A stretch of 64,000 nucleotides of DNA from Octopus vulgaris (Eukaryota), in the NCBI GenBank assembly GCA_951406725.2, contig OX597821.1, positions 51,026,001 to 51,090,000 of the forward strand, read 5' to 3'. A model generated the notes under the pieces. That model was not told the origin of the DNA and made no database searches. It worked only from the letters and a program-made list of their open reading frames with translations. Below are positions 1,621 to 58,990 of this stretch, piece by piece (the first letter of the stretch is position 1; every line of letters begins with the position of its first letter). A program made the translations under genes and the position numbers.

Positions 1621-2397
1621 TCTATCTATCTAACTAGTTAGCTATATACATATATATTACGTAAACCATTATATACATATGTGTAAGAGTGTACATATAT
1701 ATGTATTTTCATACATATACATGTACATTCCAATACACATTCATGTATATGTATTTTCATGCATATACATAAATTTATTAAAGATAATGTTTTATCACAT
1801 TATAACGCACGACTGTAATAATATCTAGTAACAAAACAACTGATAGCCTATTATATATACACTTTGAAAATTCCTTCGTAAATAATGAATTAGAGAATGA
1901 TATATTGTTACTTGAACTGTACGAATATTTGTATCCATGTATATGCAACAACACTTCCATAAACTAGTAACCATCTGTGGCAAATATTAGTCTTCTCAGA
2001 ATTAGAATTAGGACACTCACGCAATATATGGTATAATATATATAATTGAATCGCAATAAAATACAAAACATAACTTTATACGAAACTTATAATCTATATA
2101 AAGTTATATCCATCCATCCATCCATCCATCCACCCATCCATCCACCCATACATACATAAATACATACTGACTTATAACTTTAACCCTACAAGAACTATAT
2201 ATAACTTAAACTCTACAAGAACTAGAATTTCAATGATGAATAATTTAGAATCACGAACACACAAAATACAAATGTTTTGTAGTCAATCAGATCTTCACAC
2301 ATATACATCCTATCGTCAGCTCTGCGTCACGGATATTATTATGGTTTCGACACATGAGAAGTACTATTCAAACCGGCGGTTTCTGAAATACTATATA

Positions 2398-16880: not shown

Positions 16881-18583
16881 CATGTGTATGTAGAATAGTT
16901 GTAATGACAACTTCAGCTCCGAAATAACTCGATTATTATGCAGTGAGACTCAAAGAAATGTCTTATTTCATCTTTAATCTACAAAGAAAGAATAATTGTA
17001 TCGTAGATTATTCGAGATATTTCATGAAGACTGTTCATCAGGAGTCTGAAAGGAAGAGATTGAAATCTGATAATAGAATATTTCATAGTTATTCTGTTAA
17101 TATTTCATTGTAGTATTTGAATTCATTTTACTTTCCTTGGGGTGATAATATATTTGGAAGAACCATTATTTTGTTTAAAAGGGCCTTTGGTATAATAACA
17201 ATAAAATAATAGAAAATTTTACAGTATTTGAGCAATAGAAACAACGAACAATACATTTTTACCTTTATGTAGAGTAAAACATTCTATATTTATAAAGATA
17301 AAGAATGTGATTATATGACGTTCATGTATTTTTCAGAGTTCGTCGACTTCTTTTCTAATATACACAAATTAATAATGGCTTATTTTCGTTGCTGCTTTTA
17401 ATCTCATGTTTTTAATCTCTACCCTGATTAAACCTACGATTAGATGATTTCTGATTATAATCATCCTGTCATGCTTTCATATAACGTTTTGAAGTCTACA
17501 TTATATAAAGTGATTTTTCTTTATAAAGCTACGGGGAGTGATTTTGAGAGATTTGGTGATTATTTCGACCAGCTGAAGAGACCACATAATGGCTCTGTCA
17601 CCTAGTTTTGAAGAAGGAGAAGTAACATATATTCTTACGAAATGAAATGTAATTTAGAAGGATTTCATTTGCGGAAGTCTTTTCATTTGAAGTCAAGCAG
17701 GAACAGAAGCCAGATGCCGGCTCACTAAAAGCTCATATCATGATCTACAGCTTGCATTCTTTAGGGGATAGATAACCTAATAAATTTAGAATGTACAGAA
17801 TTACCTGCATGTAACACGATAGTCATGGAGTTGAAAGCAAAGGTATTTAAAACGAATAGCGTGGCATTTTCTAGAGAAAGTAGGATCAATAAGGAATATT
17901 CGGATTTCGTTTGGTCCATAATGAAATATTAAATGCTAATTTATTCTCGTTTCATGCAAACAGGTAACAACGAAAACAAAATTTACTAAGAAGGCGAATA
18001 GCTATTAAATTACTTTTATAAGTCAATTGCTTCAAAAGGTTTCATTTAAGTTAAAGTTCGTAAACATCGGATATCAAAATCACAAGATGTCTGTCTCTAG
18101 ATGTCGCTGAAGTCTTCCTTCACAACAACATCCACAGTAAGTGTTGAAATGGAATCCACTGGCATTGTAATATGCAGTCATTAACGCTAGCAAGTATTTA
18201 TATAATTTTAGACTGGTTTTATATATAACTTGATAAAAATTGATGAGTTAAACCATTGTTCATAGATTATAATTAATTAGTACCCTGTACAAATTATCAG
18301 TTATAACTGCCTTAACCGAATAATACAGACAAGAGTACATACTACAGACCGATAAGATTAATTATAGTGAAGAGCGAAGAGCAGAACGTTTCGGGATCAT
18401 AATTTTCGTCTAAGAGTAAAGGGGAGGGAGTATGTTTATGCATTGATCCGTGTTAATTGAAACAGAAATCCAAGTACTATATAGAAGTGTACGAATATAG
18501 ATCATGTCTATATATGAAATAGTCTTATTCCATTGTTTAGCTTGAAGCAAGGCACACTTCAGTAATAAAGGAGTTCTATTTGC

Positions 18584-18900
18584 GTGAGACGACTGTTGTT
18601 ATCGCTAGGCCTAACTCATCGTAAAGTCAATACCACCATGACTGATATCCAATCTACAGTGGAGAAGGCTAGCCACTGGATTTGGTTAAAAAGAGACGAT
18701 GAGCGATGGCTAGAAGTATATTGAGTTCTTCATAACCAGCTGATCTAGCAAGCGGGGCCTCATATCAGTGAAGGGGGCCGGTGCGCATTGATGCCGTCGA
18801 GAGGTAGGCCCCGAAACGGCGCGCATTCTCTCCTGATGACTCCATACACTTGCTAGCTTCCAGTATACGGAGCTTTTAACTGGTAGCACTTGCATGTGCA
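18584..18900 (+). mobile_element. 3' end of a Hero-like RLE non-LTR retrotransposon
   Basis: 18584-18724 translates VRRLLLSLGLTHRKVNTTMTDIQSTVEKASHWIWLKRDDERWLEVY*, matching the A-E-x-A-S-x-W-I/L-W-x-K-R terminus of Hero-type ORFs; GC-rich structured 3' UTR follows. Confidence 0.75.
18754..18839 (+). ncRNA. Rearranged (non-circularly permuted) hammerhead ribozyme candidate
   Basis: GGGGCCT..GTGCGC..TGCCG-TC-GAGAGG-T-AGGCCCC-GAAA-CGGC-GCGCAT-TCTCTC-CTGATGA; helices I, II, III plus an extra helix all pair. Confidence 0.7.
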
Positions 18901-21292
18901 AGTTGTTTGCAAGACATGTTGAGAAGGAATAAACATTTCAAACAATTTTTCATGCTAATTCGGAAAACAATACCAACTATCTCAGAAAACTTGCTTTACA
19001 CCCCCATTCTTAAAGCCATTTTGTCAAACTTTACCACCTACGCTGTGGTCAGAGTAATAAATCATCTCTTATTTAAATAGCTTAGATATATCTCAGTATT
19101 CTCAATATGGTGTTGTAGCTAAAGTATCTTGAGCATGAGAAAAAATATTTAGAAAAATATATGATTATATAATATATCATTGACAGAAACATCGGATATC
19201 GATATCCACTATATATTTCAGTTTAGTACTTATACTATCGATGTCTATTAGATATCTATATACACATTATACACACACATACATGCGCATGCAAGCATAA
19301 GAGAAATTATAAAGTCACTGTGCAAATTTGTTTGTATAACTATAATTCTATATAACAGAAATCGTCTGAGTAAAGTATTAGTGAAATAGTTTGTTACACA
19401 TTTAAATAGATCTAATCGTTAATATTCAACATGTCCGCAATCATAATGTATACAAATCGTGATGCGATTTTGAAGTATTAGAAATAAGTTTTGCAGCTGG
19501 TTTTCCATACTTCTCATCCTATTAGTTATTCTGCACCATAAGTCTTCTCTAATAAGAGATTTATTTGAATAAGCATTAGTCCTTTCATGTCGACATAAAG
19601 TAAAGATGATTTTTAAAAAAATTAATAAACAATTAATAAACAATTTTTTTTATTGCCGAAGTTAAAATGAATGCATTATGATTCTAAATGTTCTTTACAC
19701 TATTTACACATTAATTCTTTATTACATACGACTGAAGTTATAAAACTTAAAACTTAAAACATGTATAAGTTTAAAATAAGCCTATTTAAGTATGTATGAC
19801 TATGAATGTTTGTGTATCCGTGTGTCCGTGCGTGTATGTAACTGCATACATTATCACATTTATATACTTGTCTATGAATAAGCTATACTAAGAAATGCAT
19901 ATTTCTGTGCGTGTAGCTGCATGGTTTCCTGGCTTATAATATTAGTGCCCATGTGTCTGCTCCGACAAATAGCGCTTATTTGTAATTAGGTTATCTCTGA
20001 GAATATTTGTATGCTAATGTTGGTCCATCAGTGCAAATTCTGACCACAATACTACGGATTTAGTTCTTATGACCGGGAAATGGAGAACTAAGAAGTATAA
20101 CAATGAAAGCAGAAATATAGAGAATAAACCAGCTGGATATTGGTTGGAGAATCATATGTAATCTATTCAGAAACTGAATGACGAGAAACAAGGATAATAA
20201 CCTTTTTGAAACTCTATTAACGTTTATATATGTTTTGGTGGGAGAAATGTATTTTGGATTAAGAACAGATACTTTCGTTACAGATCAAATCGTTTCCTTC
20301 TACGTGAAATCCATGGAATATGAAGTGATAGTCAGTTTCCTTTTATTGAGTCGAAAATCACCATGAAGAAACAGTTCTTTTATACTATGAGCCATCTACT
20401 GCTGTAGGAGATAATTCCAAAAGGCCGACATTCTGGGAAGGAAGAAGTGTACGTAGTTCTTCATTCGTACAGAGCCGATTGTTGGATTGATATAACATGG
20501 GTGCAGAGAAAATCAGAGAAAGTCATTTAATGCTTAATCTAAACGGATTGTGCCACTTATCGGTGTTAAGTGATTCACAGTGTTAATAACTATTAATGGA
20601 TTTTATTAATTATTAATGAGTTTCTCCTCTTTCTAATTGCGAGAGTATGAAATATGAGTTTACGCGCCTTTCTGGCCGCTATGATCTAGAGATAAATCTT
20701 TGGCAACGCGCCTGTTGCAACTCCAGTAATTTAACATTAAATAAAATGAATAACATATTACGTTTTAAATAGTTCAAAATACATATATAGTTGTACTCAC
20801 GTAAACACACACACACACACACACACACACAAGTATGTCTATGTGTGTATATGTGCGTGTGCTGTGTGTATGTGTATGCATGCGTATGTTTGTGTCATGT
20901 ACGTGACTGTGTGAGCGTGTGCACGTAGTTGTGCATTTAATGATATGCAAGGTAAACAAAGCTATATTAATCCAAACCACGCTTTCGATCATCCGGCTGT
21001 GAGTCCTTATTTGTAACAGTTTGCAAATATGTGTACAAATATGTAACAGTCTGCAAATATGCGTACAGATATGTGCAGATTGTAATTAGAGAGTAAATGA
21101 AAACGTGATTCACATGTTTAATTCTGCTTTCTTTAAATAATGTGAAGACGCTTTCTTTAAATAAACTTCTATCAGCTATTATACACAGACTTCTAATAAA
21201 GTCAGTACTGAACACTTTAGTGCCCTTGTACCATAAATTATACAAAATAAGCATACAAAGGCATATATGTTTGTAAATATAAATATATCCAT

Positions 21293-57789: not shown

Positions 57790-57851
<62 letters not shown>

Positions 57852-57874
57852 AATATATACTTAGTGCAAGTATG

Positions 57875-57952
57875 ATATATGTGTACAGGACACCAAAAGA
57901 CGTCGAACACATAGAGAGACGAAAAACATATACAGGACAATAAGCACAACGA

Positions 57953-57992
<40 letters not shown>

Positions 57993-58899
57993 AAACATAT
58001 AAACAGTAAAAAAAAAAAAAAATTATATATAAACAGTTGAAAAATAAATATATAACAGTGAGAGACAGGACAAGGAGAACAAGATAAGAAGGGCTGTTTA
58101 CGCCAGACGAAAAAAGTAATGCAAACGCTGGATTATAGTGGACGACGAGAGAGAAAGAATGTCGACCAGTGGCCTTAGAAGGCGGGCGAGAAAAGACAGG
58201 ATAGCAGTTACGACGGAAGTATCGTCGCAGATGGACGACGGGAATGGGGGAGGAGGAGCAAGAGGAAGAGAGAGAGAAGAAGGGGAATGGTGCGAGGAGA
58301 CCATGAAGAATGGTGAGGGGGAGAGAGAGAATGAAGAATGAGAGAGAGAGGAAGAGACAAGTTAAGTGAGGGAAAAAGGACGAAAAAGGGAATGGGAGAG
58401 AAAGAAAGAAAGATGCAGAGTCGCGTGAGAGTTAATATCAAGGCTAACTTGATAAACAGAACAATCTTACTTAATAGGGTGCGTGCGTTTAGTCGTATAA
58501 TATGTTAATAAAATAGAACATATGCATATATATAAACATATATGTACGTACCTACCTCTACATGTACATATACACGCATATATGTGTACAGGACACCAAA
58601 AGACGTCGAACACATAGAGAGACGAAAAACATAGACACAAACCAAGGAACAGGACAAGCAAAAAGAAAAAAAAGAGATACAGGACAATAAGCACAACAAA
58701 AAATCCCCTTCTTCAGTCGCTAAGGTTTCATCTACTCTACGTTTCGAAGGATAAAAGCGAGACGTATACTTCGAAGAAACTTCCTTCCTGCGAAAAGCAA
58801 ATCAATTAAAATTCTGAGATCTTTTCGCAGAGGGGTAAAAAATGGTAAAAAAGCAAGACGGTAACGACAGTACAAACATATAAACAGTAAAAAAAAAAA
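57875..58899 (-). mobile_element. PLE-like remnant with partial direct terminal repeats
   Basis: 57875-58022 repeats parts of 58578-58899; flanked by (TA)n; contains a ribozyme motif. PLE assignment is inference. Confidence 0.55.
58703..58787 (-). ncRNA. Rearranged (non-circularly permuted) hammerhead ribozyme candidate
   Basis: GAAGGA-A-GTTTC..TACG-TC-TCGCT..TCCTTC-GAAA-CGTA..GAAAC..AGCGA-CTGAAGA-AGGGGAT. Confidence 0.7.
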
Positions 58900-58990
58900 G
58901 ATATATATATATATATAACATACAATATTTTATAGAAACGCAGAAAGCTTTGTAGGTTAGGGAGAGAAAGCGACATAGTGAAGGCTTAGA

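Follow-up and report, generated by a model that had tools for sequence, protein, structure and literature searches.

A 131-nt element with the strands of a rearranged hammerhead ribozyme lies on the minus strand at positions 58705 to 58835 of the window (the whole 64,000-nt stretch of DNA that was analyzed). The RNA is classed as hammerhead-type because it combines the core elements CUGANGA, GAAA, and UH, where H is not G, with the three stems I, II, and III, the G10.1-C11.1 pair being formed with an upstream strand. At this site, the strand order is P0a-[P5]-II5'-P4-III'-UC-I-II3'-GAAA-III-P4'-I'-CUGAAGA-P0b, and across families it generalizes to P0a-[P5]-II5'-P4-III'-UH-I-II3'-GAAA-III-P4'-I'-CUGANGA-P0b. 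The individual features are as follows.

58705..58835, minus strand: whole predicted ribozyme, 131 nt (strand matching, pairing, family support)
58831..58835, minus strand: P0 5' strand, pairing with 58705-58709 (5/5 pairs, pair probability 0.81-0.98)
58788..58830, minus strand: P5 hairpin, a 10-bp stem of 58830-58821 with 58797-58788 (probability 0.98-1.0)
58782..58787, minus strand: stem II 5' strand, with G10.1 at 58787, displaced 5' of the cleavage block (pairing and covariation)
58776..58780, minus strand: P4 5' strand (pairing, family support)
58763..58766, minus strand: stem III strand before the cleavage site (pairing, covariation)
58760..58762, minus strand: U16.1-C17 at 58762-58761, with cutting predicted between 58761 and 58760 (analogy to hammerhead cores)
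58756..58760, minus strand: stem I strand after the predicted cut (pairing, covariation)
58746..58751, minus strand: stem II 3' strand, with C11.1 at 58746 (pairing, covariation)
58738..58745, minus strand: GAAA core and stem III strand (GAAAC invariant in 44/44 rows of the alignment described below)
58725..58729, minus strand: P4 3' strand (pairing)
58710..58721, minus strand: stem I 5'-side strand, 58721-58717, and CUGAAGA core, 58716-58710 (pairing, alignment)
58705..58709, minus strand: P0 3' strand, immediately 3' of A9 (covariation, pairing)

Helices II (6 bp), P4 (5 bp), III (4 bp), and I (5 bp) are free of mismatches. The original prediction had placed the minus-strand strands within 58703..58787; all of them were found where it had put them, and every helix pairs. 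The helices were thus given correctly, but the description was incomplete, as the motif is longer by 48 nt on its 5' side and by 5 nt on its 3' side. The missing parts are two helices, P0 and P5, with which the motif spans 58835-58705 and which close the break between CUGANGA and stem II. The P5 hairpin touches both P0a and II5' with zero spacer.

Copies of the fold in the window

A descriptor of the core pairing finds exactly two sites in the 64-kb window, the one at 58.7 kb and one at 18797, and a looser pattern finds four sites where 0.05 would be expected, among them a decayed copy at 2313-2380. At the fourth looser-pattern site (44023), helices were looked for by eye and none was seen.

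18745..18856, plus strand: family B copy of the fold (pairing, family copies), with P0 at 18754-57/18840-43, P5 at 18758-73, II at 18774-79/18807-12, P4 at 18782-86/18821-25, III at 18793-96/18817-20, UC at 18797-98, I at 18799-803/18828-32, the CUGANGA core at 18833-39, and an outer helix at 18745-52/18849-56
2313..2380, minus strand: decayed copy of the same fold, derived from an octopus Naiad 3' UTR (looser pattern; text match by eye to Naiad_Obim/Naiad_Ovul)

The same helices are present in the 18.7-kb copy, where P0 contains one G-U and P5 one mismatch; in most family B copies, these two helices are perfect. The pairing bears out the claim that the strand order and the extra P4 helix at 18754-18839 match those at 58.7 kb. 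The real window holds two core matches; 100 dinucleotide shuffles of it gave on average 0.13 core and 0.01 full matches, with a maximum of one. In this comparison, only the 58.7-kb site was parsed as full, because two strands at 18.75 kb are identical and the greedy parse picked the incorrect one. An Rfam scan of the window yielded no hammerhead model among the best 150 of 373 rows, which were microsatellite-driven matches.

Genome-wide occurrence and sequence families

Across the genome, two core patterns gave 2,410 and 4,383 matches, compared to 8 and 320 for the respective reversed controls, and the sequences studied for each pattern were drawn from the first 100 matches listed. The retrieved loci contain 121 distinct cores, with truncated and decayed copies kept in, of which 68 have all four outer helices (II, P4, P0, and P5), against 11 of 600 controls with a shuffled 100-nt upstream region. 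At least eight sequence families in this genome carry the fold, located in Penelope-like tandem units, the 3' UTRs of two RLE elements, and Naiad remnants. We grouped the copies by short sequence rules of our own into A, A2, and A3 (kin of the 58.7-kb site), B, C, D, E, F, a decayed G, and a Naiad group. Markers of family A (17 nt) and family B have 1,129 and 1,291 genomic matches, respectively.

P4 forms with at least 4 pairs in 24/25 family A and 22/22 family B copies, and in most families, the best copies have junction spacers of 0 nt. Under a stricter scan, the 19 copies of the Naiad group contain stem II in 16 cases, P4 in 13, and both P0 and P5 in 8. When upstream regions were swapped between families, the family's own region ranked top in seven of nine columns, the others being one tie with a related family and one loss for a decayed copy. 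We have little doubt that the fold is real.

The triplets typical of the families are GUC, GUA, or GUU. A control pattern with G17 revealed no G17 family among the first 100 of its 791 matches, which were mostly register artefacts with about six single mutated copies, so that this control is largely confounded by shifted register. Family C (for instance, L242 and L254) has a P5 capped by a GAAA tetraloop, and its stem II is the weakest of all families, with at least 4 pairs in 3/13 copies and a variable G run.

Covariation of the stem II strands

All 44 distinct A, A2, and A3 copies without TA runs in the flank were aligned using MAFFT, leaving out 6 of 50. The structure with the upstream stem II strand is paired in 92% of 990 cells and shows 128 two-sided changes, values obtained on related copies and for a structure derived from the same rows. 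None of 500 shuffles reached either value, and slid controls were paired at 41-46%. The predicted pairings are kept in this alignment, with covariation above all shuffled and slid controls. The core nucleotides do not vary in any of the 44 rows, whereas both strands of stems I and III show changes; stem I is paired in 97.7% of cells, with two-sided changes in 4 of its 5 pairs. Upstream stem II reaches 96.8%, with four two-sided changes, all at the fourth pair, and G10.1-C11.1 is paired with the upstream strand in 41/43 rows. At P0, the junction pair switches from U-A to G-C in 3/42 rows; P0 and P5 are 84-85% paired, with columns that are partly misaligned for A2. The strand after CUGAAGA covaries with P0a, and II3' covaries with the upstream strand. 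Taken together, the alignment favors the upstream partner as the strand that forms stem II, in line with the pairing originally proposed. The downstream GGGGAT/ATCCTT alternative offered alongside it fared less well, its strand being the 3' strand of P0.

Host elements

The three elements that carry or delimit the two main copies are listed here.

57988..58913, minus strand: host element of family A, one ~882-bp non-coding unit and 44 bp of the following unit, flanked by (TA)n runs
58496..58500, minus strand: the 3' end usual for the family, located ~264 nt 3' of the predicted cut and internal in the window copy (27/29 other loci)
18582..18917, plus strand: 5'-truncated 3' end of an RLE non-LTR (Hero-like) retrotransposon, the element ending 116-119 nt after the predicted cut

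The family A unit at 57988-58913 contains no credible ORF. Other copies form head-to-tail arrays with a spacing of 824-883 bp and one ribozyme per unit, among them a four-unit array (L570). Of 29 loci, which include two overlapping pairs, 27 end at the position of 58496-58500, fused to (TA)n, while their 5' ends scatter; the remaining two comprise one with a tail of ~30 nt (L018) and one running off the locus. From this insertion pattern of partial tandems, a fixed 3' end, a microsatellite target, and a short tail, we infer that the family A host is a non-autonomous Penelope-like element. The permuted fold was originally assigned to two retroelement types, and it does recur in both RLE and Penelope-like hosts, although the 58.7-kb host is itself non-coding and its Penelope-like nature is deduced. 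An 80% identical fragment of a family A relative lies directly 3' of the main unit (57812-57958, minus strand), with (TA)n in between.

As for an autonomous partner, blastn comparison of family A with 40 loci of an active Penelope-like element (PLE) with a C-terminal GIY-YIG and with 19 Naiad remnant loci gave no match. This PLE (955-aa ORF) was rejected as a partner, as the motif is absent from its 40 loci and 30 more show a 5' repeat of its own. A family D unit beside the start of its ORF suggested a partnership, which is explained by the shared (TA)n target. Family A likewise has no detectable similarity to the Naiad remnants and lacks an ORF. The PLE itself (L335:2414-5278; G000:C2, about 168.27 Mb) has a C-terminal GIY-YIG-like end, was recently active, was missed by Pfam, and has ~1,190 matches to its 5' end, often in inverted pairs and with (TA)n insertion.

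In families B and C, the hosts are RLE non-LTR elements, and the fold is 110-119 nt away from the element's 3' end. The host element type at 18.6-18.9 kb combines in one ORF RVT_1 with a zinc knuckle and PD..E nuclease motifs, the latter two recognized by eye, and homologues of its protein are named R2-type or RT. We provisionally label it Hero-like, after the original prediction and the C-terminal motif. Pfam returned nothing in 10 fragments, and the viral contigs hold no relative of the Hero-like protein. R2-type elements carry HDV-like ribozymes at their 5' end; it is unusual for an RLE non-LTR element to have a ribozyme in its 3' UTR. Family B copies also occur in clusters, 4-10 kb apart, at 18.62-18.65 Mb and 20.69-20.72 Mb of G000:C29 (L032-L044, L221-L224), where their 3' ends join the same downstream sequence, which suggests insertion into, or amplification with, a tandem repeat.

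The family of the 2.3-kb copy adjoins RT fragments on their 3' side. For this Naiad-type remnant, a first look at the genome returned 413 candidates.

Naiad elements in other animals

Naiad PLEs share with family A a (TA)n preference and partial tandems, and they have tails of 30-40 bp (PMC8557442). By eye, the window copy at 2313-2380 matches the published octopus Naiad 3' UTR, which has the same fold as the 58.7-kb site; family A is ORF-less, unlike Naiads. According to Craig et al. (2021; PMC8557442), Naiads are without canonical hammerheads, relaxed descriptors found none, and only the labels 'HHR_core/half_core' are given for them. The full layout was recognized by eye in 9 of 54 published Naiad records (File S5 of PMC8557442), a lower bound. 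The carriers are three Acropora elements, one from Clytia, Naiad-2_Movir, Naiad_Plae, Naiad_EuTe, Naiad_Obim, and Naiad_Ovul, the last two with only three firm P0 pairs by eye. Their hosts are cnidarians, an acanthocephalan, a crustacean, and octopuses, and thus belong to four animal phyla. The text search used short words and was blind to line breaks, covering 58/62, 29/43, 15/23, and 15/25 places for the core words and 81/81 for CGAAAC.

Judging by sequence, variants of the layout are probable in Naiad_Bfor and in a squid-region record, whereas nematode and one arachnid-region Naiad records appear by eye to hold a plain type CSG in their 3' UTRs, with long P4 and stem III. The Naiad_Plae core resembles that of octopus family C, an RLE element, a likeness that hints at exchange or convergence. 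Provided that they cut, permuted hammerheads missed by standard descriptors would explain the supposed lack of a hammerhead in Naiads. This offers a direct test of the open point in Craig et al. (2021) that Naiads proliferate without a hammerhead, since many appear to carry permuted ones.

Relation to known hammerheads

The closest relatives of the fold are types SGC and CSG, described by Eckert et al. (2023; PMC10085705), which cleave in vitro at 0.004-0.19 per minute and need all four helices. All 583 published type SGC examples are metatranscriptomic, type CSG was published from two metagenomic sequences, and neither is reported there from the genome of a known organism. Type SGC (HRIMA-1 and variants) shares the S-G-C block order, in which the cleavage site comes first, GAAA second, and CUGANGA last, a linker of 3-5 nt that connects stem I with stem II, the full core, and P4, which in both folds ties the far sides of stems I and II. 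It differs in that II5' and its P4 strand follow CUGAnGA, leaving 5' products of only 15-18 nt, as is also the case for shortSGC-1. In the present fold, these strands precede the cleavage block, and P0 and P5 occupy the A9/G10.1 position. An intact block C, with II5' within 0-2 nt after CUGAnGA, was found in 0/122 cores and 0/44 closing pairs. Type CSG shares the contiguous run II5'-P4-linker-III'-UH-I-II3'-GAAA-III but places P4'-I'-CUGANGA first and joined to II5', whereas here this segment comes last (PMC10085705). Where CSG units stand in tandem, the stretch that begins with II5' in one unit and finishes with CUGANGA in the following unit has exactly the present order, and the fold may have originated from such a tandem.

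Stems II, III, and I cross one another, so that the three-way junction without crossing stems of types I, II, and III does not arise. As in PLE hammerheads and non-LTR retrozymes, the ribozyme is situated close to the 3' end or within non-coding units in tandem, and the hosts have partial tandems and presumed mobilization by PLE proteins. In these sources (PMC4209133; bioRxiv 10.64898/2026.07.22.740005), those ribozymes belong to type I, are for the most part minimal and dimeric, and have no more than one additional nucleotide separating position 9 from 10.1. In contrast, the present fold is non-circularly permuted and complete as a monomer, which sets it apart from the type I retrozymes.

The suggestion of an undescribed system goes too far, as the S-G-C order with P4 was already described and shown to cleave in 2023 (PMC10085705). 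The novelty lies in the A9/G10.1 opening, in the P0/P5 clasp, and in finding the fold in retrotransposons and animal genomes. No description of the present strand layout was found in the open-access literature that was searched. PMC10085705 treats CUGAnGA and its flanking strands as inseparable, with only 1-2 nt tolerated between CUGAnGA and stem II in published hammerheads, and the list of six possible permutations rests on that rule. If the RNA cuts, it breaks the rule, and non-circular permutations move from obscure environmental RNAs to animal genomes, with thousands of copies. A site between A9 and G10.1 that accepts whole helices would also be useful for ribozyme engineering.

Folding, predicted cleavage, and proposed life cycle

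At the 58.7-kb site, a nested folding model, which is unable to score pseudoknots, forms P0, P5, and stem I; it assigns a probability of 0 to stem II and of about 0.1 to P4 and III, and it folds the II 5' strand into a competing local hairpin. Folding energies are unremarkable at both sites (z of -1.68 and 0.13), and a PDB search returned nothing. A depth peak over the core, seen in contigs of 4/23 sequencing runs guessed to be RNA, was set aside as an indication of RNA level because it reflects subfamilies stacking there. One stem III variant of the core pattern was searched for in other collections: at least 121 stretches of viral contigs gave no full match, and at least 119 stretches of metagenome contigs gave one chance-level full match and none convincing, results that do not imply absence.

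By analogy with known hammerheads, the motif probably cleaves itself. Catalysis is supported by a core that is invariant across unrelated hosts, by retention of H17 (partly confounded, as noted above), and by the fact that the nearest published types cleave. Our main reading is that of an S-G-C hammerhead-core RNA with the stem II 5' strand upstream, cutting after the C at 58761; together with the full life cycle set out here, we give it a probability of roughly 0.65. The RNA would keep the strand ring of the non-circular types SGC and CSG and be opened additionally between A9 and G10.1, with P0 and P5 holding the opening shut, and self-cleavage after C17 would be slow or switched. For family A, transcripts through the head-to-tail ~880-nt units may be cut once per unit, and the unit-length RNA may be re-joined or stay clasped by P0, II, P4, and III. 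A Penelope-type reverse transcriptase acting in trans would then prime at (TA)n from a fixed internal point and cross the cut site for more than one unit, producing arrays whose 3' end is fixed and whose 5' ends are random, a pattern that fits the PLE circle model of PMC4209133. Hero-like 3' UTRs would be cut ~110-120 nt from the element end; in these and in Naiad 3' UTRs, cutting is likely slow or switched, because the copies are made from continuous templates.

A broader account would make this the seventh natural hammerhead layout and the missing ribozyme of Naiads, derived from CSG by partial tandem duplication and exchanged between PLE and RLE elements, the cut 3' end being held on its own body as a nicked, still-paired RT template. 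We put it forward tentatively and think it could well be wrong as a whole.

A hammerhead-derived structure that cuts barely or not at all, and that serves as a 3' UTR recognition signal for reverse transcriptase, is the alternative that survives best, though it is unlikely. It would explain why genomic copies run through the predicted cut, with none of 59 beginning there (0/29 family A and 0/30 family B loci anchored 3' of the cut), and why a position near the 3' end is common to all hosts. A cut in Hero-like elements, moreover, would sever the last ~118 nt needed for priming. However, the catalytic nucleotides and a non-G17 are kept in all families, though two unrelated RT clades would have to read them, and canonical PLE hammerheads, too, are copied intact and cut slowly (PMC4209133).

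Assembly of the strands between two tandem copies or two molecules, as in the dimers of minimal PLE hammerheads, seems quite improbable. Family A does occur in tandem arrays, a CSG tandem would bring II5' of one copy together with the following copy's core, and metazoan PLE hammerheads have been proposed to act as dimers (PMC4209133). Against this, a span of 131 nt contains every partner, spacers at the P0/P5/II junction have zero length, and single-copy Hero-like and Naiad 3' UTRs have the full strand set.

Slightly less credible still is an ordinary type SGC, in which stem II would be made from the strand right after CUGAAGA and the upstream strand would be a decoy or a switch. At 58.7 kb, an A-C mismatch can be followed by 6 pairs with the downstream strand, and if a mismatch is tolerated at 10.1-11.1, this strand pairs at least 4 bases in 22/25 A, 12/14 A3, and 11/13 C copies, so that a downstream-strand switch in these copies is possible. 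Yet strict pairing from 10.1-11.1 yields 4 bp in 0/122 cores, and a downstream stem II is impossible in B (0/22), D (0/26), E, F, and the 19 Naiad remnants. Across the A-superfamily alignment, this alternative is 72.7% paired, with its closing pair in 0/44 rows, and the covariation described above ties the downstream strand to P0a. Chance pairing in repetitive DNA, for which one could cite short helices with G-U allowed, the single metagenome match, and the one full match in 100 window shuffles, is already refuted by the counts against controls and by the covariation.

Hammerheads of other kinds also came to light. A separate repeat with a canonical-order minimal hammerhead core, likewise beside (TA)n runs, occurs in the octopus at L335:2195, L342:1229, and L509. 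The viral contig L163 (IMGVR_UViG_3300000228_000061) carries, by eye, two identical canonical type II-like hammerheads with a pseudoknot, ~450 bp apart.
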